Source of the DNA: Styela clava
Taxonomy: Eukaryota
DNA: 64,000 bases
Assembly: GCF_964204865.1 (NCBI RefSeq)
Contig: NC_135256.1
Location: 8,928,001-8,992,000 of the forward strand
Reading direction: 5' to 3'
Positions 331-62,740 of this stretch are shown piece by piece. The position numbers were made by a program, and so were the translations under genes. Under the pieces are notes generated by a model. The model was not told the origin of the DNA and ran no database searches. It worked only from the letters and a program-made list of their open reading frames with translations. How positions within the stretch are numbered: the first letter of the stretch is position 1; every line of letters begins with the position of its first letter.

Positions 331-3086
331 CAGAAACAAATATATTACAGACCAAATAAGAAGACAAATTATAGATTATAGTGTTTTTTATTGAGATGAA
401 TGAGCCTGGTGTTCTTCAGAGAATTTTCTATTATATCTAAAATTACCTCGTTTACTGATGGAAAGGCGATTTCGTTTTGATAGCAATAGTAGTATACAAA
501 CAGAATACTCTTTATATCAGGATATAACTGAGAAGAGATACAATTGATATTGTGGGACGACTTAGAGTCTTAGATTTATCTATAAAACAATATGCAAAGA
601 CTTTTAGCTCTTGTGCTTTTGATTACCATCTTGCAAGAACTTTCTAGTGCCGAAGGTAATATCACATGCAACACGTTTTTAATAGCTTCTAGCTGATGTT
701 TATTTATAAAGGATGCACGCATTAGTACCAGTCGAAAATCTAGATATAATATAACCAGTAGCGTAGTTTGGAAGTCAGTATATATATGGCTTCTAGAGAT
801 ACGCGTAGGTTTGAAATGGCCAAATCACCACGCTGTAGAATTTGCATTGGTCAGTACACAAGCCAACACAGCATGATAAATACACACATCAAGTAAGATT
901 TCATTTCAGAATCATGTGGGGTACAGCATATCATTGAGTCGTCAATAAGTGGAAGAATTGTTGGCGGCAGTGAAGCTGCTCCTGGTGCCTGGCCATGGCA
1001 AGCAATGCTCGTAGAATATTACCAGGATCTCGATGAATTTGGTTTTGTATGTGGCGGCACATTAATAAAAACGCAATGGGTATTGACGGCAGCACATTGT
1101 ATAAATAGGTAAGTAAGTATGCTAAAATATAAATTAGCTAGACTCATAAATTTTCACAAGATTACTTTTAATGCATGTATGATGTATTCAGATTTGATCA
1201 ATTATGGTCATTTCCAATCTCAAAGGCTTTTATTCCCTGCTACACGTAATCCGCACTTCAGTTCTTCTCATTTTAAACTAGATATGAAGCTGGCGGTATT
1301 GATGCATGTAAAGGAGACAGTGGTGGTCCTTTGGTTTGTCGGTCAAGTAAAGATCAACCATTTGTACTTCGTGGCATAACAAGTTTTGGTGATAATTGTG
1401 CTTTAGCACAGAGACCTGGTGTTTATACGAATGCTACGCAGTTTATCGACTGGATTTAACAAGTAACCACAAACAATGGGAATATTAATAGAGAAGGTAA
1501 ACAAATGAATCGTGAATACAAAACTTCATATCTTCGATCGTCTAATAAAAGATTTATATTTTCTGCTGTAAAATCAGGATTTCCGCCAAACATTGACTAC
1601 GAAAATAAACGCGTTACGTCGATAGTGATATTTTGCTAGTATATGATTTCAAGTTTTCGTATTTAAATTTTTATCTACGAACAAGTTTGTGGTATTTGAG
1701 ACATCGGATGACAGAGTATAAGATTGTATGCGATTTTGACTTCACTGAATTTTTTACACTTAAAAACATTTAATATTAATTTGTTCCCATTCACGATTCT
1801 TCTTCTCAAAATTGGCTGAATCATTTTTGCACTCGGATAAAAAAAAAATCATATTTGATCACTTTATACATATAAATATGTAACAGATGTATGTTTTTCA
1901 ACCACTTCAATCAAAAATTGTGAATCAACAGTAACGAAGAACGGAACAATACTCCGAAGTCCTGTAGTGGACACATCGACTTGGCTATATCCACCAGATT
2001 CAGTATATATTTGCTATTTCCTATAAATTTTTTTTGTACATGGTATATTGTCAAGATTTCATCAACAGAAGTTTGATAGTTAGATGCAATGGAAAATATT
2101 ATAAAATGTAGTAATAATACGTCTGTAGATGTGAAATCAAGTCGAAAAGTACAGTATTCTGTATATACTATATTCATATGATGCCTATATAAATGATTGC
2201 GTTCTTTCGAACGTGTTGACTTTAATTGAGAAACTCGGTTCTGCTTTCAGTTCAATACTATTCCAGGTTGTGTATCCTAATATTAATATCATATTTATAG
2301 TATTGCATTTGGAATATTCTCGCTGATGTTGGATGGGAAATCGAGATAGAATTCATTTGCTTCTTCCATTTACAATATTTTGCTCTGTATGATTTTTGTC
2401 GAGACTATGTTGAAATTAAATCAGTTAATACAGGTAAGGCGCATTTATATGGCGTGATTCTCCAATAACATCACCATGTTGTTAGTCAAGTTGGCAAAAT
2501 AATAGGAGGAGAATTATTGTGAAAGAGTGTGTAGTTTTGTATTAAGACTCACAGTTTATTGTAATATTACATACTTTGTTCGATATATTTATGGTATAGT
2601 TCAATTTTAAGCATCTCAAGAAGTTATTGCTGTTGACCACATAAATCAAAACGATCGAAATCAGCATATTTTGTTTTATTAAAGCTTCAATCTCTCTGAA
2701 CCTTCATTGTGTGTTTTCAGGGTACAGTAAAAGGTTTTGCGGATCAACAATGCCTGAACCAATTCATATTGAAAATAACGAGGCATCTGTCAGATTTTTG
2801 TCAGATGCTAGGTTGGAGTTATCTGGTTTCGTACTGCGAATAACCTTCGTCCCAGGACACCAAATGACAACAACTTCGGAAAAATCCACTGCGAAAACGA
2901 CTTCAACGGTATCGACTCAAAACGTTGACACATCCAAACCTACAACTAGATCAACCTTCATGCCCGAGACAACTTCTACAGCAGAATTCCAACATCATTT
3001 TACTTCTGAAGTCGCTGGAATGCCCCACACGACACTGGCTAAAACTACTCATGCTTTGTTAACCACAGATAAATCATCATCTACTT

Positions 3087-5567
3087 CAGGCCTGGGCAAG
3101 CTCCGGCCCGCGGGCCGCATCCGGCCCGCGGCAACGTTTCATCCGGCCCGCGAGCAGATTTCTAAATTAAGACACTTACATTTTTTATTTACATATAAAA
3201 TATACTTTGAGGGCAAATTTCATTAATGTAATAGAAATAAGCGTTTTGGTAGCTTTGTGTATTTTAGATTAGACCATGGCATAGTACCAACTGCTATCTG
3301 TAGTCATCTTTGTCGCAACGATCAGCGCTTGTTTTTGCACGTGATTACTGAACAGCAGAGTAATCGAAGCGTGAATTTTGCGCGCGTAATTTCGATGAGT
3401 CGCGTTTTGATTCGTGTCCCAATTAAGAAGGATACAGTTAGGCTAGTCAGCTCTGCGCTACTCAGCGTTTCAAATATTGTAGAAGTAGTGGTATGTAGAT
3501 AAATTGTTGAATTGCGCCCAGCTTTATTTTATTCTTTGTTTATCCTTTTATTTATGTAACTTGAACTGTAGCGTCAATTCTAAACCTGTGCTAGATCTAC
3601 AAAGTTGCAAAATGTCAGCCGAAAACAAGAAAAGAAAAGTTGACACAGAATGCAGAATTTTTAACAAAAGTTGGACAGCGAAGTATTTATTCACAGAAGT
3701 CGATGGGATAGCTGTTTGTCTGGTTTGCAAGGAGAAGGTCGCGGTTATTAAGGTTTTTAATTTAAAAAGGCATTTTGAGACAAAACATGCAAAAAAATAC
3801 AAAAATCTAAGTAATAATGAAATGGCGCAAACAGCGGAGAGTATGGTAGCAAAGCTCGAAAAACAGCAAAGTTTTTTCACACGACTCCATGCATCTAATG
3901 ATGCAGCTGTCATGGCCAGTTTCGTAATAGCTCACAAAATCGCTCAAAACAGCAAACCATTTTCTGAAGGGGAGTTCGTCAAAGAATGTTTAGTAGAGAC
4001 GGCAGCAATTGTTTGTCCTGATAAAACAGATGCTTTAAAACAAGTTCCGCTATCGAGAAGAACTGTCACCAGAAGGGTTGAGTGTATCGCAGGAGATTTA
4101 AGAGATCAGTTGCTACATTATGTCAAACAATTTGACTTCTTCACTTTAGCGTTAGACGAGAGTTGTGATGTACGCGACACTGCTCAGTTGCTTATTTTCG
4201 TTCGTGGAATTACTTGTGATTTCAAAATTACTGAAGAAATAGCTGCTATAAGACCAATGAAAGGAACAACAACAGGTGCAGATATTTTTAGCGAGGTAGA
4301 TGCATCCATGGATAAGTTGGGACTTAAATGGGAAAAATTGGCGGGAGTGACGACAGATGAGTGCCCAAATCTTACAGGAAAAAATGTGGGATTGTTGAAG
4401 CGCATGAAAGACAGAGTTAATGAAATTGACCCAAAGCAGCAGTTAGTGTTTTTACATTGTATCATACATCAACAGGTATTGTGCAAGTCAGTGCTAAAAA
4501 TAAGCCATGTCACTGATGTTGTTACAAAACTAGTTAACTTCATCAGGTCTCGAGCACTAAATCACAGACAGTTTATTTCCCTGTTGGAAGAGCAAGAAAA
4601 TGAGCACACTGACATAGGATATCATACAACTGTGAGATGGCTCAGTTTAGGCAAAATACTGAAGCGAGTTTGGGACTTGCAGCAGGAGATTCGAGAATTC
4701 TGTCAAACAAAGAACAAGGATATTCCGCAGCTTTCAGATAAGAAATGGTTATCTGATTTTGCTTTTGTTGTTGATGTCACTGCTCTATTGAATGAGTTGA
4801 ATTGCAAACTCCAAAGTAAAAAACTGTTTGTACATAATATGCACAGCTTGGTAAAATCGTTCATAACGAAATTGCAGTTTCTTTCACGCCAATTACAGAA
4901 CAATAATCTCGCTCATTTTCCCACACGCAACACAGCTACCACATCTGCAAATGATTTTCAAAAGTACTCTACAATGCTAGATGCACTGCATGCTGAATTT
5001 TTAAGACGATTTGAAGATTTCCGATTAATTGAAAATAAAATGAGTATGGTCTCTTCTCCTTTCACCAGTAACGTGGAAAACATACCATCTGATGCACAAC
5101 TCGAGCTTATTGATTTGCAGTGTGACACTTTACTTCAGGAAAAATTTAAATCATCTGAAATTCTGGATTTTTATTCCTCTCTAAATAAAAAAAAGTTTTC
5201 CCAACATAAGGAGACATGCTCAAAAGATGCTAGTTCTTTTCGGATCCACTTATATTTGCGAGCAAACCTTCTCAGTAATGAATTTTACCAAATCGAAATT
5301 TCGGTCGTCTCTCACCGATGAACATCTTTCTGATTTGCTGAGAATATCTACGTCTGTCATTGAACCCGACATTCAAGGACTTGTTAAGGCGCAGCAGAGC
5401 ATACACACGTCTCATTAAAAATAACAATTGTATTAGATTTTGTTTCATTCAATTGTGTAATAAAATACAATAAAAAACGCAATGTGGGTTGACTCAAATT
5501 AGTCCGGCCCGCCACTGCATTTTGATTTGCAATGTGGCCCTCGAGCAAAAATAATTGCCCAGCCCTG
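3087..5567 (+). mobile_element. Full-length hAT DNA transposon (Buster/SPIN/GTF2IRD2-like), 2481 bp
   Basis: TIRs CAGGCCTGGGCAA and TTGCCCAGCCCTG (12/13 match). Perfect 8-bp TSD ATCTACTT at 3079-3086 and 5568-5575. Subterminal CCGGCCCGC repeats. Encodes a transposase. Confidence 0.97.
3612..5418 (+). pseudogene. hAT transposase (GTF2IRD2/SPIN-like) with a single +1 frameshift near 5187-5200
   Basis: ATG at 3612 (MSAENKKRKVD). BED-like zinc finger (CLVC..HFETKH), LALDES, VTTD, HCIIH and VRWLS motifs. The C-terminal dimerisation region FGSTYICEQTFS..RSSL continues in the +1 frame (ORF 5227-5418) after AAAAAAAAGTTTTCCC. Confidence 0.92.
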
Positions 5568-8204: not shown

Positions 8205-11200
8205 TTAATATATTGCAGTAGCTATAAAATAAGTTGTAAAATATATCCAACTGGACAACTGCATAGTAAAGCTCCTGGCATCTGCCGTTGGACAGTCCTG
8301 CTCTTTGCAAGGTGCTTGTCTCATACCTGATTTGGTGACGTATTCATTTTCACCATCAAGGTCTGGTTTTAAAGTCACTAGACCAGCCGAGGTTGTTGTT
8401 TGTGTACTGTTTGAAGATAAGCAGGGACCAGAAGTTGTATTTTTCGCCGGTTTCGTGTCGCAGGGATTCTCAATTTCATCGACGCCATTTTTTGGACCAA
8501 CTGTGGCTTGAGGTAATGTCTGTTTTGGTGTTGTTGAGATGTAGTGATTAGGATCCTTGACAAAAACAATTTTCAAAACAAAGCCCGATGATTGAACTGA
8601 CGAGTCAGACTTAAATGTAACCTTGGCTCGATTGCTCCTAATGGTTATTGGGCTCAGCAGGGAGCTGCCGCAATATATAGATGTCATATCTAGAAATAGG
8701 AAATATTCGAAGTTTAAGTTACTTACACAGTGATGGATTATATGCTGATGGAGAGTTATAAGCTTGTTAAAGAATATTTTTTCGAACGCTACTTTGTATA
8801 TAGCACTCTTAATTAATTATATCTATTCAGTATGAATGTTAATAGTGGCGTATTTTGTGTGTCCGCAAGGTTTTAAGTTTCAATAACACCTATCAATAAT
8901 CGGTTCACAATGCCAGTGTAAGTAAAACAAACACATATATACTTTTATATATATTCAATACATTTAACTTGGTGGAGTAATTTATCACGAAATCGTTTTA
9001 TACAAATAATATGATATTTTGGCAGTATTACTAGAGATATTTATCGGTAATATATATCGGCCATTTTTTAGGTTTCGGCCATGTATCGGTATCGGCTAGA
9101 TTAAAGCCGATATTTCCGATATATTTACTTTTTTGATTTGATCCAGAATGTTTTAAAAGATAAGTTGAAATTAGGCTTGCACGTAATTGACAAAAATCAA
9201 TTCCGTAATTACGGCAAAATCAATTACGTAATGACCCCGTAATTGCGATATTTTTCCACGCATTTAAACCTATCATAACAACCAATTGAATCCACTTCTT
9301 TTCCGAATGGGACATTGAAGTTGGGTTTTCATATTCTTGGCAGTACTACACGCCGGCGGCAGATGTTAAAGACAAATATCAAGTAGTGAATTCAAATTAA
9401 TATTATTCTTATTTTTATCTTTGTGTTAGCTTTGGTTTTCCTTTATCACCTTCGCAAATTAACCGTCCCATTTTTATGCGATCAATTTTATTTTATCATT
9501 ACCGACACTGGTATACGGATATATATGAAAACGATAGTTTTTTAAAACCACCTTAGTACTGAATAAAAATTACGGGTATCTAATTTATTAACCAACGACG
9601 AGCGTATTCTCTCGTTTGATTATGCTTGCGATTTCCTCGCGACGAAGACTTGTTTTTGCAGCGTCTTCTGCATTATCCGACATTACTGCCTTGTTAGCAT
9701 TTTATAATAATAATTATTGATGTCGACTTATTGACGATATTCCGATTACCATGCTTCATTTTACATTTAATCATTTCGCGGACTGAATGTTTATAACATT
9801 ATTTGCGATAAATTTAGATCAAATATTATTTATTTGCGTATATTAAATACCGAACTTATATGATATGCCTTCTCCGAAAATACAAAGTTATATCGCAACA
9901 CAATGCATTTTGTGACATTTATTTTACACTCACGACATTTATTTGCTAACTCAAGTCGGCGATCCTATCGACCAAGTTTGACACAAATTTGGTCGAGTGC
10001 CGGTGGTATTCAAGTCGACGATAAATCAAAATAAGTTGCCGCATTTGGTAAGACAGTTGATCATATATGGCCGAAATATTGAGAGGAATTGTGAAAAACA
10101 TCATGAGCAAGGCCAAGTCCGACCTGATATATAACGATAAAACCGTTAACAGAACATCAAGATTTTGTAATAGAAAATGGATCTCGCACAGAATAAACAC
10201 ACTGGCTCATATTTGATAGCAGTTAAATTTTTAGCGGTCCGCGAGGAATCCGTCGTTTTGTTGTTTCTCTGCCGTCTCAATCGCTTTACCGATGCCGAGA
10301 AGACGAAGTTGCGTTGGTTCATTACGCAATCTCTCTTCTGTCGTCATATTGCTATTTGATAAGGGCGATCAATTATCACTGCGAGGTATTGGCGCGAGTG
10401 ATCAATCGCTCTTTTCGCTTATTTGGTTCCAATTCGTCGCGAAAGCTCTTCGTTAAATTTCACAAGATCGTCGTGTTGAAAGGTTATGGATATTTTCCTG
10501 TTTATACCCCAAGTCTGAAATAAAACAGCCAAAAACAGTATGATATTCCATGTTCGTATATCAAGTGTTGATATTAACAATAAAGAATGGTTAAGCATTG
10601 CTAATCCACACTTGGTGGGGAATTCCCACTATTTAAACGCGTGACTATAAAATAGAAACGGAACATATATACCATAAGTAACGGAAAACTGGAACAAGTA
10701 AATAATAAATAAAAGTAAAATGGATACAAATGTTTGATAGATTGATCTCATGCGTTCATTAGTCATTTCACCCGAAGAAGTTGAAACCGAGCGTGTTAGC
10801 GTCCATCGGTCTTAACACAATTCTTCCCCCTATCTACGGTTATTATGTACATTGGCCATGGCCATGCTAGATAAGATGCGAGAGAAGTTGAAACCAGGTG
10901 TGTTGGCGTCAATCGGTCTCAACGCAATCCCTTACGGTTAAGTTGCGGGAGAAGTTAAGACCAGGTGTGTTGGCGTCAAACAGCCCTACTCAGTTCTTCC
11001 CCCTTAACTACGTTAATAATTTACATTGGCCATGCCAGATAAGTTGATAATAGGTTAGTAAATGGCAACGCGTCACGCGTTCCTTCACCTACGTAACAAG
11101 AGAGAGAAAAGAAAGAAAACAACGGCTGCGAATACCGGAACTCTAACTTCTTCTACTTGTTGAGCTTTCATTTTTCGCAATCGACTAAATTGACTGCTTT

Positions 11201-14200
11201 GAAGAAAGCTCGTTTCAAGGCAATAATTACGACTTTACGTAATTCGTAACTTCCCTTCCGTAACTCCAAATAATTACGTAATTCCGTAAATTACGTGCAA
11301 GCCTAGTTGAAATACTACTTTTTAATTTATTTTTTGTATGAAGAGATCGTGAGCTATGAGCCATACATGTCCCCACCCCCGCGAGGGAATAGGATTCACC
11401 TGTTTTCAGCTATTTATCAGCCAAACTAGCTCAACTAATTTGGCTGTTTTTGCTGTCAAATTTTTATATTGACGTTTTTAATATTACATAGTATTTATGA
11501 AGAAAAATATCAACACAACACATAACAAAAAGCAACTAGGCGCCCAGTTTTAAATCATACAGTGGAATTGGAGTCCTTTTTAACGGCCTTTGGGCACGGC
11601 TATAAATTCTGAGTGTTTGTCGTTAAGTACGAGTGTCATTTAGTCCGTCGACATCTATAAACTAAGTTCCGACCCAATTTTCCCTCTACGCAGGTATTAT
11701 TTTTAATTTTGTTAACTACACAATTTCATTATAGATATATTGACATGACCAGCTAGAGCCCTATAGACTTTCTCAAAATATATGATAGCAATTGTAAAAT
11801 ATTATAAAATAGAAAAGAAAAAAAAACATCCTCGACGGTTATAGGTAGGCCTTCTTATTATCGGTGCTGATTGATATTCTTTCATGTTGGCTTTGATTTA
11901 TTGCGTCGACGATTACGATTAACCACAAAATAAAATATTTGTAAAATGCTTTTAATTTGAACGTAGGACGGCGGCGCTAGAATGTGTGTGCGATCTTCGA
12001 TATACTTTTAAACACGAATAACGATATTCGAAGGTCGCGATATTAACATTAAATTCGAATTGTACATCCCGGCTTCCCGGAATTGGAAAGTCCCGGCTTT
12101 CTAATTGAACACCGAAATTACTAGTGGCACTGTACAATGCATCTTAATCAGTTAAAGCCTCTGGATACCAAACATCAATTTCATATTATGTGTTATATCT
12201 CTTTTTTCGATCTGAAATAGTGTGTGTACTATGAACAACGCTTAAATATCATTGTTTTAGCCCTACACATCAGCACACCTAAATTAAGTAATAATTATAT
12301 AGTAACTGAATATCGGTATTTTTGTGGTATCGGTATATCGGTATCGGCGTTTTTAGCTGGTATCGGTATCGGCAACAAAAGTCGGTACATCATACAAGTA
12401 TTACAAATGACTCACTTAATATACCAAATTGTAATATAAAGGCTGAAGGTCTATTGGCCATGATTCCAGTGGTTGTCGAAATAATACCTCACACTACCAC
12501 GTGATATCTATGTCCAAGAGCATGGTCTTTGTCATACTTGTACTTAGGCTTGATCGGTGAAAATACCACATGAACAGCGTAGTGGGGATATTTTTAGTAG
12601 AAAGCGAGTTACGATGTTTGAAAAATTAAAAAACTTTATGCACGCCATGAGCAGAAGTACTATAAAATTTAATCGAGCTATATTTGGTTATGGAACTAGA
12701 AATGCAACGTCCTTAAATGACCGTATGAAACGATGAATCGTAAGGCAATAGCATAATACATGAGGATGAGCTATTTAATTTATAACGCGTGTTAATTGAT
12801 GATTTTGTAAAATGTTAAGTATTACACATGTAGTGTCAATATTTAGTTACATCACAGCATTAAATGTTATAAACATGAATCATGGTTGCACATACGTTAT
12901 TGCGGACACCCGAAAGCTATAACAGTGACAGGAAATTGTTAGTGAACATTGTAAAATCCACTTAGTAGAGATGGTACGAAAAGGCACGGAAATGAAGAAA
13001 AATATAACGGATAAACAGAGATCCACTCAAGTTCTACAAATACTTATTCATTTACTAATGTGAGTGTTTGTAAAGTGGGTAATGTCCCTTCCTAGAAATA
13101 TTACATAAATTGGCCAATTTTTAACCTAAGAACATTAACTTTAAAGCATCATTCCACGTTATTACAACATATAGTTTCACGGATTCTAGATGATTAATTC
13201 TATTGATTTTATCATATCGACTTAACTTTCAGTTTTACTTGAGACTTCAACAACTTGAATGAGTGAGCCTAACTAGAACTAATCCTCACGCGTTCGGAAT
13301 TTTCGTGAAACAGTTTGATAATCGGTATGATTTAACTGAACAATGCAAAATATAAAACGATATGTAGAAATCTTCGAATATGTATTTAAAAATATACCAA
13401 TAATAATATCATACTGACCTGCCTCGGCTGATGTAATCAACATGTAGTCGTAACATTCTTGAGTGTTCAACGGGTTTATTTCAACGTGAAAAAAGCATTC
13501 AAATTCTATTTTGACGAAATAACCTTTTGGGGCAGCAATATTCCATGTACAGTCCTTTTATAAATAAAATTATTACGTATATCCTTTATAATACGCCATA
13601 ACTACACAAAAACTAACTTTGGAAATTCCAGAAGTGAGGTATTTGCAAATTGAATAAATATTAACTCATAAAACAAATATGACAAATAATTTTGAGTTAT
13701 TGTGTTACGTTTTATGACGTTCTGCTCTCGATTAGACTTATACGTCCAAGAAAGACTTCATTCGTACTAAACTAGCACGTAACCTGCTATGAGTAAGCCC
13801 ACCTTTTGTACATTGAACCCAAAACGAACCAGTAAATACAAGCACGAATCTGAACAAAACGTTATTTCAGTAATATGAAAAGCTGATATATATATCCAAA
13901 TATTGCTTGAAAAAACACCAAGTTGCACCATAAGACTAAATATTTTTCAAAAGTGTTGTCATTACAATAATTGGATTATATCATTACCGTATTTGGTGGA
14001 TACATCCATGTTTGACTGTCTGATATAGGAGTTCTTAACTTTGTTCCGCTGCGTTGTATAACTGAAGAGCAAGCAAATATATCCGATTGTAAAAAACAGC
14101 TCTCTTTCCCTTTAAAAGATATTATCCTTGGTTATTCAAGCAGTCGCGAACAAAAAACTCATTTCCAGCTAAAACTTGCTTACCTGTATACTTCGATATT

Positions 14201-17200
14201 TGAGTTTGAATCCATCCCATGTAGTTTGAAACATCGACGTAAACTCCGGGCCTGTGCTTGAGTGCACAACCTATACCAAAGCTTGTGATTCCAAACATGA
14301 CGGTGATTTTTTGTCTGATACAAGTTAAAGGACCTCCACTGTCACCTTGGCATGAATCAACTCCACCATTTTCAAGTCTGTCACGTCATAAATTTAAAAA
14401 AGTCAACATGAACAGGCGACTTGACGAATGGCAAAAAAATACATTTAAACGTTTCCAACACCGATTCTATGTATTTGCAGTGATTATTGAGGGATCCTTT
14501 GGTTCCATTAATAATCTAAGAATTAGATGGGGTCGGATTATGTCGGTAGGAAACCTAGCCAAACAATCTAATTTGAAATTTCCAACGTACCCAGCACAGA
14601 AATGATTTTGTGGTAATATTACTCCGACTTGCTTGTACCAAGTTTCACAAGCTGATTTTTTGAGTATGAGAATAGCTGCATTTTGTAACACTCTATTGCT
14701 ACTGGTTCCTGAAATAATAAATTGTTAAATGTATCAGTGCGGACGCGACCCCGTGTTTCAGAGGTAAGTAAATCACTCACTGATCTACATTTTGCAAATT
14801 GGTCACTATTACCAGCTGAGCAAATATTCTAAATTAAAAATTAAAGTTGCGAGTAGTGTAGTTTAAATCGGGGTGGAATGACATTAAAACGAACTTATTA
14901 AACCAATAATAACGATATACTCCACTAAATCAGGCCGATCAAACATAGCTTCACACTACTACCCATACCCTACCCCTCCTTGGTTAGAATTTCATATTGA
15001 CATCTTGATTTGTTTCAATTTAATGATTTATTTTAACGAAATATATATAGGCTATATAATTCTTTTCTTCAGTTTTTCGCCCCAGCGACTTCAGTAAATT
15101 ATTCGAGTGTTATTTGTTCAGAGATTTATATTCTTTTGAATTCTATTTTCTGACAAAAATTCATATACCTAGTCTTACAAAAAAATGAGCAATTACGAAT
15201 TTCCATTTTAGACATTTTAACCCTTTTTTCCAGAATATGAATTTTGGATAACTAAACCTAGAATGACAATCTGTGATATATTAAGCATGAGTATATTATT
15301 ATAGATAGTTTGTTATGCAACCACAATTATTTTAACCATTTACATCCCTCGCCTCTATAAAGTAATATTGTACCATCAGTTGTTTGAGAGGTTGATGAGA
15401 AACTGAAATACACATGATCTAATATAAAGTCATTTCCAAATGTCACATTTCTGCATAAATGAGGAAATAAATTAATGACTAACATGTGTGTAAAATATGT
15501 AAAAGCACCGAGATTTTTAAATAATTTTTTTGGCAAAATAAACTTCCAAATTTTTTGTTTCTGATGAAAATTGTAAAATAAAAATAAATCGAACTCTTGA
15601 AGGTAGTTTGTAGTTGTATACTACGAAAAAATTGGTAAATTTAATATATACTATGTGGCTTGAATGTTCAAATTCAACGTTCTACCACTAACCTTGCGTT
15701 TCTCCCCATCCGGCAATTCGGCACGTTTCACCGTTTATGACATTTTGATCGATAGTTGGAAAGCATACTGGTCTGATATAGTTCGTGTATTCTACTTCTC
15801 CCGCCAGTTTGATTAAACATACATCGTCAACAAACGCATTTGACGAACCAATAAATACTGGAAAAATACCCCGAAACAATAAACAATATCTTGTAACAAA
15901 ATACAGAATTATGCAAACCAAACTTACAGTGATGGCAAGTATATCTCGCAATTGCAAATCTTTTGACCGAATCGTCCTTCAGGTCTTTTTGATGAGCGCC
16001 AAGAGCGACGTGTGTGTATGAAATCGGATTACTGTGGCAAATGTGAACATAATTTAATGGGGGGAAGTATTGTATATATTTAAACAAAAGAAAAGCCCAA
16101 TAATTGAAAATGGGGAGAAAAGAACAGACAAAGTAAAAGAAGAGAAAATGTGAAAATAGAAGAGTACATAACAAAAAAGGAATCCGCAAATACTTACTTG
16201 GAAAAGCAATGTGCTGCGGTAAGAACCCATTGCTTTTTTATCAGACTCCCTCCGCATACAAACGCAAACCTATTTGCACCTGCATCATTATTATAACTTT
16301 TGTAATATCTCAATATCATGGCCATCCAAGGCCAGTCTCCTCTCAGAGAATCTGAACCCCCAACGATTCGAGGTGAGTGATCAACTGAACTTGTGTATCT
16401 TATTCCGCATTTTGCTATAAATAAAAGCCAAACACAATCTGTAACCTTTTTGTATGTGTGCACCATGTCTATTATGTTAAACATTATATCGTCACGCTAA
16501 TAACCGAATTGCGTAAGCCATTTTTGGCGATTTTGAGATTTTATAAAATAGGTATTTATGTAATGCTGCGCACCTGTCCGTTAACTCAGATTTTATTTTA
16601 AGAATTCCGAAACCCATAAAAATGGAGATAACATGTACATTTGTGCAATTGTTTGGTCATAATGAATTATCCTTGTTACCGCAGGACTATTGTGACGTCA
16701 CAAAGGCAAAATAACCTCGGCGACGTATTTTCGAGTTTTTGCATTTCGGATTCTAGCTTAGTGCGTATTAATTTGAGTTTATACTACAGTATAGGAAGAC
16801 GTGCACTTGTGATATTCACTGTCCGAGTCCAATTCACCTTGGTTGGCTTTTATATTGGGTGCATTGCTGTTTTATTCTTTATATTTAATCTTAGTCTTAT
16901 TTCGGTGGGTGTGCAGAACGTGTTATATTGATGAAATATATATGTTTAAACATAAAAAAAAATGTAATTGAAACGGATTAGCTATTTTGGGGATTAGACA
17001 TTGTAGATACTGAGAATTACATTCGTTTTTGAAATGTTTAGTTTTCAGGACTGGTGCATATAGTAAAGTTGCAAAATTGCGTATGTCCCCAAGTCATAGA
17101 CACATTTCTGCCTAAGTCACAGTGCGCCTTTATGACGTCACTTAACAGCGTCATACAATTTAACTTAAATCCGGCTACGATCAAAAAATTGAACCATGGC

Positions 17201-21328: not shown

Positions 21329-21481
21329 GGGTGAGTCGAATCCGTAACGAACTAGTATGACCGATTGCCACCCAGTTTTGCAACATGTCTTCATACTTCA
21401 CCCATATTCTTTCATTCTTAGACATGTTGCAAAACAGGGTGGCAATCGGTCATACTAGTTAGTTACGGATTCAACTCACCC
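21329..21481. repeat. Near-perfect inverted repeat (62-bp arms, 29-nt spacer)
   Basis: Arm 21329-21390 matches the reverse complement of 21420-21481 at 59/62 positions. Confidence 0.93.
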
Positions 21482-21663: not shown

Positions 21664-23877
21664 ATGTCCAGCAAAATGGAAGAACATCGTCATTATTTCA
21701 TGTATGGTTCTAAACTGAAGTTTGACGAAGATTCAACACACGAATTCAAGGTAGGATCCCAGAAGTAGTTAAAATAAAACATGATTAGTTTATTGGTATA
21801 TAATAAAAATTACAATAATGTGGACGTGGAGATCTATCTCAACTTAGCTTTGCATTTTCATAATTTCAAAGGCCTATATTATTGAGATATACAATGCACA
21901 TAACTTTATCAATGCCCAGTCCATACTATGTAGATGTTCCTTGATATATGGTTTGTAAAGCTAAATTTCATATGGATTTTAATGCCAGCATAATATATGC
22001 GAATTAAATTGCGATAATGTCATATGCCAATAGCATATATCTATAAATCACTGTGCCTGCTGGAAGTTAATATTCCAGGGGCATAGACTGATTTCTCATG
22101 CTGATATATCGAATCCGAAATCATTCAACAAAAAGCAGACGAATCAAACAAAACTCCCTCGTACCCGACAAGCTGTGTCTCGTTGTCTGTGCGCTTTCCT
22201 TAACACGGGGAGTGGAGGTGACGTTTATCTTGGAGTAAATGACGAAGGGCGGGTTATTGCTTTGAAGCTATCTCTGCGACAGGTAAGACAGCATTTTGAG
22301 CTCATAAATAATTTTACCACTCGATTATATATCGATCAGTCAATTTTCCAGAAGACTCATAATAAAAAGGTTTTCAGAATCTGGGTTAGCACATGTCAAA
22401 TAGATAAATGTCACAAACAGTCCGAATATGATGAACGTTAATAAATTAGTTTAGTCTTCTGCTCCTATTATGAGAATTCAAGTAGATAATTTTTTTTATA
22501 CTGACTTAAAAACAACATATTGGCTGTGTATTTGTATGGCAGATGGATCACTTACTGCTTCAGATTGCTCAAGTGTTTGACAGTTTTAATCCACCCGTTC
22601 CAAACTATATGTGGTGGTTGGCATTCATTCCCGTGGTAACATCGAGGTCAGAAGTTCACGAGCGGTTAGATCTGATACAAGAGTGGAGATCTCTCAAATA
22701 TGATGACGTAAAACGGTCTGTTGCGCACAGATTCCCATCGCATGGTCTTTGCTGGTGCGATGTCACGCAGCATACGGTTTGTTTATATTTTCATAGTTTG
22801 TAGAATATAATCAGTGTAACACATATGTACATAACTATAACGAAAACATGCACAAATCAAGATATAATACAAATTACAAGCTTTATAACAATATTTGCTT
22901 CATGTAATAAATTTATATAAGAAAGTAACCATGGCGTTACAGTTACATGAACGAATTCCAATGGCAGTTGCTTGATAAACTTCTTTCGTCACTAACTTTG
23001 ATTGTTATAGATGTTTTATAACATTTTAGCTACCGTTACCAAGAGCCTTTCCCACTGGTTGCCATTTTGACTATTTTATACACAAAACAACAAATGTCAC
23101 AGTCAAACACAGTGAAATTCATTTGGGCAGCAAATCCTTAATCGAATCGATTCCGCTTCTTTATCACGTACCATTCGTTGCTTGTCTAGACTCTAGTCTA
23201 CTCTAGACTAGACTATAGCCTCGATAGAAGTTGTGATAACATCCCCTCATGATCTGGTATCAATAAGGTAATATACTGTACCTGCACTATATTTACGAAC
23301 GCCTTTTTATAGGAGATGAGTCATCAATACGTTGTTCGTATTCACCTGAAGTCATCGAAAATGAAAAAATCAGAAAACAACCGACTTTGTCTTCCAACTA
23401 TTTATCAATGTGATAACGGGAAAGCTTATTTTCGAAACTGTGCTAGGTATAGTTGTGAATCACGGTTTAACTTAGAAGTAATTCAGAAACATAGAATAAG
23501 TATGCTTTGGATTGGCTCACCACATATAGTAACTTCATGGAAAACAGTAAAAACATTGCAATGCATAGAATTCACTTCAAAGTTTCAATTCAATTTCAAA
23601 ACAATTTTGAGAACGCCAATTGTAATACTCCCCGATCGACGATCGCCTCTCTCGAGCTCATGGCTGTTTAGTGGGGAATACTTGAACATTATAACTTGTT
23701 TGAAGAAGGAAACTAACAAACTCGATATTCAAATTATACTAATATCGATTACCTATTTTCAGTGTTCTGGGACATACGCCACAACAAGTAGTTCGTCACA
23801 CACGAGATTGCATCGAAAATCATTATCAGCCCATCGTCGATAAATTAAAAGAAGAACTGAAAGCACTCCTACGATAG
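21664..23877 (+). CDS. Stand-alone Schlafen/AlbA_2-domain protein (about 257 aa)
   Basis: Exons 21664-21750 (..FDEDSTHEFK), 22079-22282 (CAFLNTGSGGDVYLGVNDEG), 22543-22776 (FNPPVP..HRFPSHGLCWCD), 23313-23446 (YVVRIHL..GKAYFRN), 23763-23877 (TAG). Total 774 nt in frame. AATAAA follows near 23892. The ExxxxEFK and AFxNxxxGGxxxxGVxD motifs are the Schlafen AlbA_2 signature. Confidence 0.88.
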
Positions 23878-24879
23878 CTTTTGATAATTGGAATAAATAA
23901 ACTTTGCACCAAATTCAAAGTACACAACATATTTCATTGGTGACGTTATATTTATTGTCCACACCATCGCTGCTATTCATCGAAATATTTTTCTAATGAT
24001 TTGAAGACTTTCTTTAATGTTTTTACTTTCCTTTGGAAAGATATTACAGTCTTTTCACTTTATGTCAACACTTTCAAACAATTTCTAATGAATATTTGTT
24101 TCATTTTGTCATCAATAAAATTGACAGAAGCCAGAGAATTTTTAAGAAAGCAAGATATGGAGCACAGTATAAACTCGACATATAACATATTAACGACGTA
24201 TCGTTATCATTATCCATGTGTTTTATTGAATGTTCTTGGATTTCAATGATTAATTTTTTCCGATAAACTGTTTCATTTTTTTCTAAAGTAAACCAGAGAG
24301 ATATTCTTTTTTAAAACGAAGCAAAAATATTTTATAATATAATTCGTTTTCTAAATAAGATGAAACTACATGATAATATCTGAAATATCACACTTTTAGT
24401 TCAGTGAATTCATCCTCTGGGTATTCTGAGGCAACGAAAGAATCCATCTTGTTAAGGTGTGTTTTTAGTCAATCAGTATGCTTACAAGGTCGTGGAATGC
24501 ATCACATTAAATAGGCTTTAATGGCCATAACATATTGGACGTCTTAACTTGAATAATTGACCGGAAGACTTCGAACATCGTAAGCAATCTCGCAGTATAT
24601 CTACTCTGTATCAGAAAATTGTAATATTAGTACTAATAGTAGTACTTAGTAGTTTTCTTTAGCGATACCTTGATCGAACAAAATTGGCATCAGTGGCGAG
24701 GACTTAACTTTGTGCTAACGTTAAAATTGCCGATCCGATAAAGTCTGACAACAACGATGTAACGTTTACAGATGTGCCGGTGCGCACTTGAAGCTCATAA
24801 TTCATTTATAAAATGCATTTCAGCTAGACGTATAAATATTCTTTGTATAAAGAGTATAATGGTACAAACTCACAGATTT

Positions 24880-29312: not shown

Positions 29313-30828
29313 CTATGCATAAACATGTAAGCTAAAAGTTACAAAAAGCCCCAAAAGTAGAAATATAAGGTTAATTTTGTTCGACTCTACATTGCTTGTC
29401 GTTGATTCAGGTTGAGATGTGGATATGACACTCGGTGTCGCTGTTGGAAGCTCTTCGCCAATGAATGTTATTTTTACAGTAAAACCTAAATCTCTCGGCA
29501 TTCCATCTTTGTAATAAACTGTAAAATTGGCTAGATTGCTCTGAACAAGCCCTTGGACAAGATAACCGTTCCCACACAGCTTTGTTTCAGTCCAGTTTGG
29601 ATGGTCTATCAAGATACTTGTACATGTTCGATATTCATCTGTATAATTGATGTGATAATGATGATAGCAAGTTGTTTCCAGAAAAACTTTTGTTCCAGAT
29701 GGTGCCTGAATTATCCAACGACAGTCCTAGAACAATAATATATCACTTGTGATCCAACCCTATTCAAGCGATTTCATTACTAATTCATCCTACTGTCGAG
29801 CGATATCAATTTTAATACCGGTTTATGGTGATTATGTACACACTGGTTTACAATTTTCATTTACTCCACGAAAATCTTTTTTATTATTTTTTTAAAATAA
29901 TGTCTCATTATAAGATTTTTCCCGTACGTACGTTGATGAGAATACTGTTTAACAAATGTAATGTTTGGAAGGCCACTATAAATAATAATATAAATAAACA
30001 AGTGAGCAATGCTCAAATATATGGACACGCGGACCAGAATGATGTAGTACGGGTACCGGTTTTCTATCTCTCACAGTAGACAACCGGTAGGGTAATATTA
30101 TAATTAACTTAATAGTAGTATTCACGACAACCGCGACAGCGAAACCGCCATGAAGTGCGCAATTTTTATGACGTCACCGTACACAAAAAACGAATCTCAT
30201 GGAGCCCACAGAAATTTTTGAAATAGATAAAAGTAAAGACCTTCTGGCAAAAAATACGATTTCCAACCACTGAAAATTTCAAAGCAAGTGGTCCAGTAGT
30301 TTCCAGCGATTTTTTCATAACCGTGAGAATAAAAATACCAACAAGAACAACAACAACAACGTAACTTGATAACAGAACGATCCATATAAACATTTCGTGT
30401 CCAATAGCCTACCGTTCTCAGTAGACTTCATGACACTTTCACTTACCTCGCTAGGAACTGGTTTCGAGGAAACCGTTGAATTTAATCTTTCATATCTTAA
30501 CACTGTATTGTTTGTATTGACAACTTCTCCACACGGTATAGAATCGCCTTCTGGACAACTTTCCCATTCTGTTTACAAATATATCACAAGGCATATTAAT
30601 AACTACGAAATAGTAGTATTGGCACGCATAAAAAGAACTAGTCGATCAGCATAAACTATACTCTTTCCCACGTATTCAAGCATCAAAATCACATTCACCA
30701 AAGGAAGTATGAAATATAATGGATTTCAACTTACCCTTAGAAGGTACTAGGTAGACATAATCTGGATCAGATCCATGAATTTCAGCAACAAAATACCAAA
30801 TAACGCAGATAAAAAGCCTCTTGTTCAT
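29313..30828 (-). CDS. Protease-less CUB + short stalk + GPI-type tail protein (family member C, about 209 aa)
   Basis: Exons (-): 30828-30735 (signal MNKRLFICVIWYFVAEIHG), 30568-30447 (ESC..IPCGEVV), 29726-29313 (DCRWIIQAPSG..LETTC..TC..KLCG..GFTVKITF, S/T stalk, NLIFLLLGLFVTFSLHVYA). Total 630 nt in frame. Confidence 0.82.
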
Positions 30829-31049
30829 TTTGCTGTGTAGCCAACCTAAATGTTTATTGACCACCTCGAAAAGCTATATGAAGTGACTACATTGAAAAAC
30901 ACATTACGCATAAATACGTCATAAAATAATGGGGCTTTTACAGTGTTGTTTGTAGTATTCAAACAACGAACTAAGCAACTCGTGACCGCCCCACGTTAAA
31001 TCGACTGGAATTTTTGTGATACCATTAAAAACAACGGATCGGCTACTTG

Positions 31050-31061
31050 TACGTGACGTCA
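31050..31061 (+). promoter_or_regulatory. Overlapping HRE-core (TACGTG) and full CRE (TGACGTCA) in the divergent promoter between member C and hexokinase
   Basis: Sequence TACGTGACGTCA at 31050-31061. This is a motif match only. Confidence 0.3.
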
Positions 31062-31624
31062 GGCATGTAACTCGGGAGAAAGCAGAATATGATGATTATG
31101 TCGTTTTAATATCGTCTACGTCTACGACATTTCATAGGACTTAGGTTAGGCTCGTTATGAAATATCTGGAGAGGAGGGTGAATATCAAACACTACAACTA
31201 AGTGCTGAACGTCACATGCATCAAATATTGAAAATACCATGCCGTTGAATTCACATGAAATATCAGCGGAACAAATAAATAAGTCCACTCAAGCCGTGTG
31301 TGTGAGGATTTGTTTATCGCGATTCGCTAACGAAATGAACAGTCGCAGAGCTTGATCGAATAGTCACTGGCGCGTGAAGCAATACGAGAATGTTTTCGAC
31401 ACTCACTCAACCGTCCTTGTTTCCTTTACATCTCTCGTTGCCTTCACTCGCAGCGCTTCGAATACCGATCGACAGGACTGCTGCATTATCGGTCGCTATA
31501 TATACATTATTTTTGACGGTTTAAATGTTTGCAGCATGCAACGTTGGTAGTAGTTCTGAAACGACTGAAATTACAGTTGTAGCAAAACATCGATAGTAGC
31601 TGCTGTAGTAATCCATAAAAAACT

Positions 31625-33040
31625 ATGGCGGATGTAGCAAAACCGCGACCAAGGTTGGAAAGGCGTGCAACGCTTGTTCGAACACCTTCTATTTTATACT
31701 TTCTGGCGGATGCTATGAAAGACTTTTATTTGTCTGATGCAAAGTTAGAATTGGTAACACAGAAAATGGAAAATGAAATGATGAAAGGCTTGAATAAAGC
31801 AACTAACAAGAATAGTACTCTTCGAATGTTGCCGACATTCGTGCAGTCACTAGCTGATGGTAGCGAGAGTGGTGCATTTTTAGCACTAGACCTTGGCGGC
31901 ACAAACTTTCGTGTTCTTCTGGTTAGATTGAGTGCGGGAGAGCGACCTGAAATGGACAGCCAGATATATAAAATGCCATCAAGTATAATGACTGGGACCG
32001 GTGAAAAACTATTCGATCATATCGCATTGTGCATGGCAAAGTTCCTACAACGTCTAGATATGCACGATAGAAATTTGCCAGTCGGCTTCACGTTTTCTTT
32101 TCCATGTGAGCAAGATGGATTAGATAAGGCAAAGCTACTTACTTGGACTAAAGGATTTAGTTGTGAAGGTGTCGTGGGCAACGACGTTGTCACCCTCTTA
32201 CGGGAAGCTATCGATAGACGGGGAGACATAGACGTACAAATTTGCGCAGTCGTGAATGATACAGTTGGCACCATGATGAGTTGTGCGTATGAAGAAAATG
32301 ATTGTTCCATTGGACTTATCATTGGCACTGGGAGCAATTGTTGCTACATGGAAAAAATGACAAATATAGGAACTATTGAAGGCGAGGAAGGTGATATGTG
32401 CATTAACATGGAATGGGGAGCATTTGGAAACGATGGTTCCTTAAATGATATCAGAAATAGCTACGATAAACTTGTTGACGAGGCGTCTATTAACCCTGGA
32501 CAGCAGTTGTATGAGAAAATGATTAGCGGCATGTATATGGGAGAGATAGTCCGTTTGGCTCTTTGTCAACTCACCGAAGACAGAGTTTTATTCGACGGAA
32601 TCGGCTCAGAAGAACTTTACACCAGAGGTAAATTCGAAAGTGTAATCGTATCACAGATTGAACGCAACGCACCTAATGGATTTCATGCTTTACAAAATAT
32701 TTTGTATAATTTGGACCTTGGAGCCATAAGAGAGGATTGTGAGATAGTAGAGTACATTTGCGAGGCAGTTTCCACAAGAGCGGCTTATCTCTGCGCTGCC
32801 GGAATTGCCGCTGTAGCTCGTAAAATTAAATCTAATTATCCAGAGAAAAACGAAATAAACATAACCGTAGGAGTCGACGGAACTGTATACAAAAAGCATC
32901 CAACTTTTGCCAAAAATCTCAAACGTAAAGTGGATACCTTGACTGAAGGACGTGGTATTGGTGTGAAATTTGCACTTTCTTTCGACGGTAGTGGAAAAGG
33001 AGCTGCATTGATTGCCGCTGCTACGAAGAAAGAGGACTGA
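31625..33040 (+). CDS. Hexokinase, single-domain (about 50 kDa) type, intronless CDS, 471 aa
   Basis: LALDLGGTNFRV, GFTFSFPC, WTKGF, VNDTVGT, GTGSNCCY, INMEWGAFG, EKMISGMYMGE, GVDGTVY and DGSGKGAAL motifs. Confidence 0.97.
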   Translation: MADVAKPRPRLERRATLVRTPSILYFLADAMKDFYLSDAKLELVTQKMENEMMKGLNKATNKNSTLRMLPTFVQSLADGSESGAFLALDLGGTNFRVLLVRLSAGERPEMDSQIYKMPSSIMTGTGEKLFDHIALCMAKFLQRLDMHDRNLPVGFTFSFPCEQDGLDKAKLLTWTKGFSCEGVVGNDVVTLLREAIDRRGDIDVQICAVVNDTVGTMMSCAYEENDCSIGLIIGTGSNCCYMEKMTNIGTIEGEEGDMCINMEWGAFGNDGSLNDIRNSYDKLVDEASINPGQQLYEKMISGMYMGEIVRLALCQLTEDRVLFDGIGSEELYTRGKFESVIVSQIERNAPNGFHALQNILYNLDLGAIREDCEIVEYICEAVSTRAAYLCAAGIAAVARKIKSNYPEKNEINITVGVDGTVYKKHPTFAKNLKRKVDTLTEGRGIGVKFALSFDGSGKGAALIAAATKKED

Positions 33041-34512
33041 TTGTTAGCGAAATTCTCGTTTTCTCTTTTATCAGCATGTTTGTACAGAATGTGTCAACAA
33101 AATCTTCTACCTCGGGTTTTGTTTCATTGCTGCTGTTTACATCGCTTAACTATTATCCAAACTTATAGCGTCAATATTTGTGCATGTTGTTTATATGTCT
33201 CTTATTTGTTATGTCAAAGAATAGCATGGGCTGTGTTGTGACATACAAATTGAGATTAAAATGTTGCCAGAAATGAGAGTACATCACATCATCTGTGTTC
33301 TGATGTACCCGCATTTGCAAATTTGTTAATATTTTATATATATCATCTATTAGCTATGTGCATGCTTGTGAAGTTACGCAGAGAATAGCCAACATTTTTT
33401 GTATTGTTGTAAAGCAGAAAAGGTATTTTGAGCATTATCGTAGGTGATTTTGAAACTACAGATTCATTGAGACTGAGAGTATGATTATCTGACTTTGTTT
33501 GTAACCGATAATTTGAAAATTGTATTGGCCAGAAATCACCGCGAATCACTAATAATGCTCTATTTGTATTTTTATACAAATTTCAAACAAAAATATCCTC
33601 TTGTGTAAGTATGTATTATATTGCCCAGCCCTAAATAGAGCATATGTACATAACAATTGATCATGGCATTTGGTAGTCAGATTCAAAAAGTATTGCAAAA
33701 TTTACAATATACCTCAAAAAGAATCCACAGTGATACTGTTGTTGAAATTTTAATTGCTATCATTTTTTCGTTTTACTGTTTTCATCTTTACTGCAGTCAT
33801 TTTCACCATTAAGCTAGTAAAATAAAAGATTTGTGTGACAGCAATTTTGAATTAGAATAACTGAAAACATAATTCTTCAAGCCTATCGGGTTCGCTGCAG
33901 TATTTATTTTACTCCAGTTTTCGTTGAAACGCTAGTGATCGAGTGCAGACAGAATGGCGATATGTAAGCTATATTTCAGACACAATAACCATTTAATTGA
34001 TTTTATATCATTGCAGTATAACTACACCGATATCTTATATATAACTTGTGTATAGCTACTTCAGTATATTTAAATTTACATCAACTATAGTTGAGCAGCA
34101 TTTTTCATTACCTTGATCTGCTACGGCTGTCAACAAATCCTTGCCTCCGGCAATTGCGTCTTATGCATAGGAACTGGCCAGGTATTTTTCTAAATTCATT
34201 CAAACAAGAGCATCGTCATGCATGACAATCTGAGAATATGGAAACTTGCGCTTTTTCTGACAATATGAGTAGACAATGTTACTGTATATCAGAGAACCTT
34301 TTTAAAACTTATTCTGAGAAATAATAAACACTAAAATGCGAAGCTATATATAGGTGCGGTTGTGTCATGACTTCAAGTGTATGTGTGGTGGAAATATATT
34401 TTCCAGTTTTCAAATATTTTAATCATATCTTCACAAACGCATCATTAAAAAGTACACATAAGTTTACACAGTTGCTCATTGTTTCAGCCGGCGTTGCCTG
34501 ATGTCAAAAATA

Positions 34513-40718
<6,206 letters not shown>

Positions 40719-52985: not shown

Positions 52986-53467
52986 AGTAAAGAAAAGTGA
53001 AAAAGAGCGTTGATTACTTTTGAAAAACGCCATATTGGTTATGGCCCTTATGGGCGGTAGTGGGATTCAGCCGGTTCGCACCGGTTCTATAGAAATTCAT
53101 GAGATCAGCAAACAGGTAAGCATTACATGATTTTTTGTAACATCACTACTGGTTATGGAAGTCGCTGCTCGACAACCAGTCTTGGTGTCCCGCGCCTCCC
53201 TTTGCCCTAAAGTATTAGATTACTTATTTTCTGTATTGTGTATCCACAATGTGTGCTTTAGAATGGCGGAAAAAATAAATTACTGATTACCATAAAGCAA
53301 AATAAACAGATTCACGCCCTTTTCATTCATTACCCAGTGTCTGACTCCAGGCACCACCGCGAATCTTGAATCTAATCTGCCAATCTCCGCGCTGTGTCTC
53401 ATTCCACAGTGCAGCCGAGTGGATTTCTTGGTTAGGTTCTGCATAAGAGTGTATCTTAGCTTAGGCG

Positions 53468-59499: not shown

Positions 59500-62740
<3,241 letters not shown>

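Follow-up and report, generated by a model that had tools for sequence, protein, structure and literature searches.

Introduction

The closest studied relative of the protein described here is TOFU-2 of the nematode complex PUCH. According to the part of the PUCH paper on which we draw (PMC10567574), TOFU-2 is inactive without its motif-less partners TOFU-1 and SLFL-3/4, two partners of which one is membrane-bound, and a glutamate of its catalytic motif is required for cleavage. The N-terminal SPRY domain of C. elegans TOFU-2 is dispensable for the complex, and PUCH cuts m7G-capped piRNA precursors with U at position 3. A referee of that paper expected a mechanism limited to worms (PMC10567574, in the excerpt used). 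The Schlafens themselves are treated as a vertebrate family in passages of a review (PMC9256597), and a 2024 survey, in the portion consulted, reports no significant homologue beyond jawed vertebrates, Ciona included (10.1101/2024.01.12.575368).

Our literature search found no description of the family presented below, of its His/Cys set or of a TOFU-2 counterpart outside nematodes; Burroughs and Aravind (2020) may treat eukaryotic Schlafen clades, and an AlbA_2 tree on 993 EukProt proteomes, as seen from an excerpt, may include the clade of the family unnamed (PMC12680541). The AlbA_2 domain and an automatic annotation of the gene of the sea squirt Styela clava are already known. Because databases already hold automatic 'schlafen-like protein 2' names, the homology was latent rather than hidden. 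The Styela gene lies in the window analysed here, by which we mean the whole stretch of 64,000 nucleotides whose positions are used below.

Results

Gene structure and transcripts

The gene comprises five exons on the plus strand, which when joined on the window sequence give 774 nt and a stop-free protein of 257 aa. The introns (328, 260, 536 and 316 nt; phases 0, 0, 0 and 2) have GT..AG borders at all four positions. All four are spliced out in contigs of the runs X2 and X3, while introns 3 and 4 are spliced out in contigs of X1 and X5 (four runs from two studies were compared, their RNA nature being a guess). A search with exon 2 led to the database protein of S. clava LOC120329081 (RefSeq/UniRef, here P0001), which has 257 aa and is named 'uncharacterized'. 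The window product differs from it at 3 of 257 residues (H26L, A106V, N239Y), and all protein analyses below were run on P0001 as the RefSeq version of the window product. The 257-aa product that the earlier note had derived from the letters of the DNA is thus borne out by contigs bridging all four introns and by a RefSeq model that is equally long, and the note's description of the product as uncharacterised agrees with the database name. It had also placed the key motif on an 87-nt exon, which is correct, and had called the gene largely invisible among the open reading frames; this does not hold, as exon 2 by itself clears the Pfam cut-off for AlbA_2 (PF04326, 27 bits) and a RefSeq model already exists.

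Exon 1 (M1-K29, 21664..21750, 87 nt, plus strand like all features of the gene) encodes the Ex4EFK motif with E22 at 21727-21729, E27 at 21742-21744 and K29 at 21748-21750, and its joint to exon 2 is present in the X2 and X3 contigs. Exon 2 (G30-Q97, 22079..22282) contributes the family histidine H31 (22082-22084), an AFLNTGSGG core and the third acid, D84 (22241-22243). Exon 3 (M98-T175, 22543..22776) carries H100 (22549-22551) together with a family-specific insert of residues ~130-175 (22639..22776), in which H159 (22726-22728), C167 (22750-22752), W168 and C169 (22756-22758) mark a putative zinc site. The final strands of the fold and the conserved R216 (23433-23435) are encoded by exon 4 (E176-A219, 23313..23446). 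The coding part of exon 5 runs up to the stop codon (23763..23877), as given by the contigs and the exon joining, and includes the C-terminal amphipathic helix of residues 226-256 (23779..23871). The 3' UTR spans 23878..24314 as far as the contigs reach (ends at 24023, 24054 and 24314), with AATAAA at 23892 and 24114.

Two further observations concern the 5' part of the gene. At 21739-21741, adjoining the catalytic E27, the window encodes H26 where the RefSeq allele has Leu; His is the commonest family residue at this position (42 of 68 relatives). An inverted repeat of MITE-like form at 21329-21481 (62-nt arms, 95% complementary, 29-nt spacer) precedes the start codon by about 180 nt.

Domain, fold and catalytic residues

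PF04326 (AlbA_2) is the sole one of three Pfam matches to score above its own cut-off (32 bits against 25.3, E 1.9e-7); Sina_RING and Sec-ASP3, with scores far below their cut-offs, were rejected as extra domains. The motifs EDSTHEFK (E22, E27, K29) and GVND (D84) are intact in the window protein. An AlphaFold2 model calculated from an 89-row alignment has a pLDDT of 88 and a pTM of 0.85, and the helix 226-256 is modelled with pLDDT >90. Comparison with 48,161 solved chains gives the nuclease domain of SAMD9 as the best fold match (Z 12.7, rmsd 3.0, 156 aligned), followed by SLFN12 (Z 11.7, rmsd 3.0, 124 aligned); further top rows are SLFN5, SLFN11 and two bacterial AlbA_2 proteins, and the first unrelated row has a Z of 4.8. 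Foldseek returned 28 matches at E<=1e-3, which are SLFN/SAMD9 throughout among the matches listed. No PUCH chain occurs among the PDB sequence matches or the fold matches. The profile and fold comparisons thus recover the single Schlafen AlbA_2 fold with intact catalytic residues that had been proposed from the sequence. The absence of helicase, SWADL and RRM regions, claimed at the same time, is supported by a one-lobed protein of 257 aa in which AlbA_2 is the only Pfam family over cut-off, and the proposed C-terminal helix is present in the model.

Passages of the cited papers describe Ex4ExK as catalytic in SLFN11 and in bacterial Schlafens (PMC13056530) and the equivalent of D84 as the third acid of a Glu-Glu-Asp site (PMC9256597); the correspondence of the acids of P0001 to those of SLFN and SAMD9 is given by sequence alignment and not by residue-level superposition. 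The protein is very probably an active metal-dependent RNase.

A conserved His/Cys set in an animal family

A HMMER search over 1.84 billion representatives yielded 280 clusters at E<=1e-3, 110 of them at E<=1e-10. Conservation was analysed in 68 of the best 150 of the 280 relatives, i.e. in those with at least 80% query coverage and a length of at most 450 aa, 82 of the 150 being dropped. In this set, which is drawn from matches selected by likeness to the query, E22 is kept in 65/68, E27 and K29 in 64/68 each and D84 in 60/68 sequences, while H31, H100, H159 and C167 are found in 68/68 and C169 in 67/68. W168 and R216 occur in 63/68 and 64/68 of these near-full-length relatives. The family signature consists of Ex4EFKxH, QxDH and H-x6-8-CWC, and Ex4EF[KR]xH is present in 116 of the 123 motif-bearing matches among those listed. 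The earlier note had pointed to an inserted H159-x4-H164-x2-C167-x-C169 segment. This is literally in the sequence, but H164 is variable, being His in just 6 of the 86 relatives that have a residue there, and the conserved residues are H31, H100, H159, C167 and C169, of which H31 and H100 had escaped the earlier note.

These five conserved candidate metal ligands suggest a zinc site, in which four of the five would hold the ion and H31 would adjoin the active site. As the His/Cys set varies even less than the acids do, the protein might be thought of as a zinc-stabilised RNA-binding adaptor, non-catalytic or weakly catalytic, that keeps its acidic triad for binding metal or RNA; the review passages on SLFN5, which retains its active site but does not cleave tRNA, offer a parallel (PMC9256597). 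We regard such an adaptor as very unlikely, given that E22, E27, K29 and D84 are kept in 60-65 of the 68 relatives and that the equivalent Glu in TOFU-2 is needed for cleavage in the published experiments described in the excerpt (PMC10567574).

Thirty matches were looked up and 16 of them carry names, 14 inside the family and two outside, the latter being an SLFNL1-type protein of Diadema and a Mytilus protein. The named members come from the sponges Sycon and Halichondria, the cnidarian Nematostella, the protostomes Macrostomum, Paralvinella, Strigamia and Anabrus, five clade V nematodes, Saccoglossus and Branchiostoma, so that hemichordates and amphioxus are represented. A Ptychodera member was obtained from a separate word-index search (2 proteins found among 359 candidates). 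In the ESM Atlas the matching clusters are all-eukaryote (114 members, TM 0.76). By these sequence matches the family ranges from sponges to sea squirts.

Genomic surroundings

In a search of the 377-Mb genome P0001 matches its own five exons only, and the gene is thus single-copy. Its neighbours in the window are a trypsin-type protease, a carbonic anhydrase, a hexokinase and an ankyrin-DHHC gene. The hexokinase and the ankyrin-DHHC palmitoyltransferase are intronless frames on the plus strand at 31619-33040 and 53465-55204. On the minus strand, repeated exons of the trypsin type (trypsin being confirmed for one exon) and of a CUB-like kind, an identity that we assume, are located at 8205-16496, 29313-39217 and 59500-60728, which suggests a local cluster. 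An open frame of 610 codons at 3489-5321 on the plus strand, which is located between exons of a Thr-rich gene and encodes a Spin-doc zinc finger (PF18658), is likely a hAT-type DNA transposase.

These surroundings bear on the antiviral tRNA cleavage that the earlier note had offered as one possible function, i.e. on a tRNase of defence or stress like SLFN11/13, SAMD9 and the bacterial Schlafens. The best solved matches are indeed the nuclease domains of SAMD9 and SLFN proteins, and excerpts of two papers present the cleavage of tRNA in defence as the function held in common by such domains from bacteria through to humans (PMC13056530, PMC12680541). However, the protein has no sensor domain, its gene is present in one copy with no immune cluster among its neighbours, and its residues are near-invariant from sponges to tunicates, whereas the vertebrate cluster is fast-evolving and expanding according to the part of the survey used here (10.1101/2024.01.12.575368). 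An arms-race antiviral tRNase is therefore disfavoured by the deep conservation, the single copy and the lack of a sensor domain, and we consider it improbable.

Relationship to TOFU-2 and SLFNL1

The catalytic stretch of C. elegans TOFU-2 was obtained by hand translation of the E216A primers, the protospacer and the repair template given in the excerpted PUCH paper (PMC10567574). It reads E211-D-V-H-N-E216-F-R-M-H220, and the comparison covers ~25 residues deduced from these published oligos. E216 aligns with E27 and H220 with the family histidine H31; the MH form of the TOFU-2 motif is also found in nematode matches. The His corresponding to H31 is missing in four SLFNL1-type matches, in SAMD9 and in SLFN11, and all five His/Cys residues are missing in the four SLFNL1-type matches. 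Since the TOFU-2 stretch carries the family His four residues after E216, the Styela protein probably belongs to the same family as TOFU-2 and is a likely orthologue. With this likely membership in the TOFU-2 family, the tie to PUCH goes further than the earlier note, which had mentioned PUCH as an assembly of single-domain Schlafen-like proteins, had supposed.

A family profile built without nematodes assigns 109-139 bits to five nematode proteins and 66-93 bits to four SLFNL1-type proteins, a contrast that is not independent because both groups were themselves found through the query. The five clade V nematode proteins serve as stand-ins for C. elegans TOFU-2 and are putative orthologues only. 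With a profile of the SLFNL1-type proteins, P0001 scores 79 bits compared to 335-365 bits for the members of that profile. Automatic database names agree with the assignment, namely 'schlafen-like protein 2' and, in the ESM Atlas, a 'tofu-2-like' cluster with a score of 0.93. Against the assignment, trees calculated with no outgroup leave the base unresolved, and a branch at 85/84 in a 20-row tree sets nematodes plus SLFNL1-type proteins apart from the other rows. Also against it, a SPRY domain is absent from P0001, where only AlbA_2 is over cut-off, and also from 4/4 nematode matches scanned. The single-sequence fold of one nematode protein (P0107) reached a pLDDT of 37.7.

A motif-less paralogue and a predicted complex

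Searching the genome with the PF04326 profile gave two places, the window gene and one paralogue on contig C2; exon-wise searches of the genome, which are weak, gave no third Schlafen gene when PF04326, P0001 and a protein of the SLFNL1 type were the queries. The paralogue (P0153, RefSeq LOC120336302, 328 aa; G000:C2:13266300-13270600, corresponding to L008 8347-9901 and L009 1-2780) is homologous to residues 64-257 of P0001 (hhalign 95.5%). It is devoid of Ex4EFK, D84 is replaced by Lys, H100 by Glu and R216 by Asn, and the insert is a gap. The paralogue is spliced in 4/4 runs compared. Two of its contigs extend for ~545 nt past L009:1 on the 5' side, in the direction of an exon with a weak Tudor match and of a helical ORF of 263 aa. 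Because spliced contigs extend upstream, the RefSeq model of the paralogue is likely N-terminally truncated; the Tudor match scores 14.2 bits against a cut-off of 23 (E 0.046), and its joining to the paralogue frame is putative.

At L009 ~2036-3400, contigs of a deeper-covered transcript overlap the last exons and introns of the paralogue; together with a short ORF on the other strand, they point to a likely antisense-overlapping 3' UTR. Upstream of the paralogue, L008 5362-6937 contains Cys-rich exons that presumably resemble WAP four-disulfide domains.

The complex of P0001 (residues 7-257), two zinc ions and P0153 (residues 140-328) was modelled with ESMFold2 in three runs with no custom alignment. 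The heterodimer scores 0.65, compared to 0.03 for the best of three non-homodimer controls. Between runs, at least 98% of the contacts coincide, and the partner has a pLDDT of at least 81. In a microbial calibration the score mark was reached by 51/78 solved and 2/108 mismatched pairs, and in a eukaryote calibration by 39/65 solved and 2/126 unrelated pairs, where the calibration pairs do not cover close relatives of a partner and solved two-lobed structures of Schlafen and SAMD9 proteins could raise the score. The predicted interface consists of a parallel coiled coil between residues 225-256 and 294-326 and of contacts of 199-213 with 273-281. The coiled-coil helices are homologous and in register, with Y241 opposite Y311. 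The hydrophobic face of the helix (I/V229, T/A233, V237, Y/F241, I/L245, L248) is kept in 85 other rows (84 non-nematode and one nematode) and is not kept in three nematode rows; as these nematode members do not have the helix pattern, the joint would differ from that of PUCH. On the basis of the model, binding to the motif-less paralogue is somewhat favoured. The earlier note had suggested an oligomer and envisaged a homodimer; what the model supports is a heterodimer whose second chain, a dead paralogue, that note had not seen.

As the interface helices are homologous and in register, a homodimer may score equally. The protein could accordingly be a self-sufficient homodimeric RNase, whose copies pair by the C-terminal helix and cut endogenous structured RNA (tRNA, rRNA or an snRNA precursor), with the paralogue as at most a dimer-poisoning brake. 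The pseudo-symmetry of the predicted interface and the conservation of the helix face from I/V229 to L248 across the family are both compatible with such pairing, and the bacterial single-domain RorSlfn5 homo-oligomerises according to passages of PMC13056530. Against it stand the closest studied relative, TOFU-2, with its dependence on dead partners (PMC10567574, excerpt), and the spliced motif-less paralogue that is present in the same genome and passes the complex test. We consider a homodimeric enzyme unlikely.

Discussion

The chances are, in our view, evenly balanced that the Styela protein is the catalytic half of a two-part, PUCH-like active/dead RNase formed with the motif-less paralogue of the genome and acting on the animal's own RNA, most likely on short RNAs. 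In this enzyme E22, E27 and D84 would hold Mg or Mn and K29 would assist cleavage, which would leave a 5' phosphate as extrapolated from SLFN13/SLFN11 and PUCH. A lone lobe would require a second lobe for the RNA-binding cleft, and the dead paralogue may supply it in trans, analogous to TOFU-1 and SLFL-3/4 for TOFU-2. The active protein and the paralogue would zip together via their predicted parallel C-terminal helices, and the likely Tudor region of the partner would bring the enzyme to the germ-granule/PIWI machinery. By analogy, the substrate could, at less than even odds, be a short capped RNA or a small-RNA precursor. The Styela genome also contains an HKD exon (G000:C1:9776614-9776760, L011), which we take to resemble Zucchini/PLD6; standard piRNA 5' processing would therefore not need the enzyme, and any part that it had in making piRNAs would run parallel to the standard one.

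On a wider view, which is speculative and rather unlikely as a whole, PUCH would not have arisen in worms but would go back to an ancestral animal endonuclease. This enzyme would unite an active Schlafen of the TOFU-2 type, equipped with a zinc insert, and a dead partner that bears a Tudor domain; it would have been retained from sponges to sea squirts and, next to Zucchini, would process short capped RNAs to the small RNAs that PIWI binds. The vertebrate Schlafens with their two lobes would descend from this split form. If this is true, active/dead Schlafen complexes originate in early animals, and a machine so far regarded as specific to worms is much older. The TOFU-2-like family permits a direct test of the ancestral animal Schlafen substrate in Nematostella, Macrostomum, amphioxus and ascidians.

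Among the known systems, the N-terminal domain of the vertebrate SLFN11/12/13/14 proteins shares the C-lobe fold and the Glu-Glu-Asp site with the Styela protein. The vertebrate proteins (SLFN5 and SLFN11-14) combine two lobes, a linker (SWADL) and a helicase in a single chain, whereas the Styela protein is one lobe, and their own zinc finger is on the back side of the domain according to the review passages (PMC9256597), while the candidate site of the Styela protein is elsewhere. SAMD9/9L and the prokaryotic Schlafens provide the best structural match (Z 12.7) and an Ex4(E/D)xK motif (PMC13056530, in part), but they carry sensor or STAND ATPase parts in the same chain, have a role in defence and possess no His/Cys insert. 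SLFNL1, known here from vertebrates and echinoderm matches and likewise uncharacterised, resembles the Styela protein in that a C-terminal helix comes after a single AlbA_2 domain whose acids are intact; in contrast, the SLFNL1-type matches have an N-terminal extension and a KRGxG-type motif and do not have H31, H100, the insert or CWC.

The comparison with PUCH reveals differences in the accessory parts. The Styela protein has no SPRY domain and possesses a long C-terminal coiled-coil helix that is missing in the nematode matches, and its predicted partner, in which a weak Tudor match accompanies helical repeats, does not have the layout of TOFU-1 or SLFL-3. PUCH has a membrane-anchored third subunit, SLFL-3/4, whereas none was seen in Styela in exon-wise genome searches, which are weak for divergent domains. 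C. elegans has no PLD6-like gene, whereas the Styela genome has the HKD exon, PLD6-like by our assumption. What the Styela protein shares with TOFU-2 is the single Schlafen fold, the Ex4EF[KR]xH motif and, as predicted for Styela, motif-less single-domain Schlafen partners.
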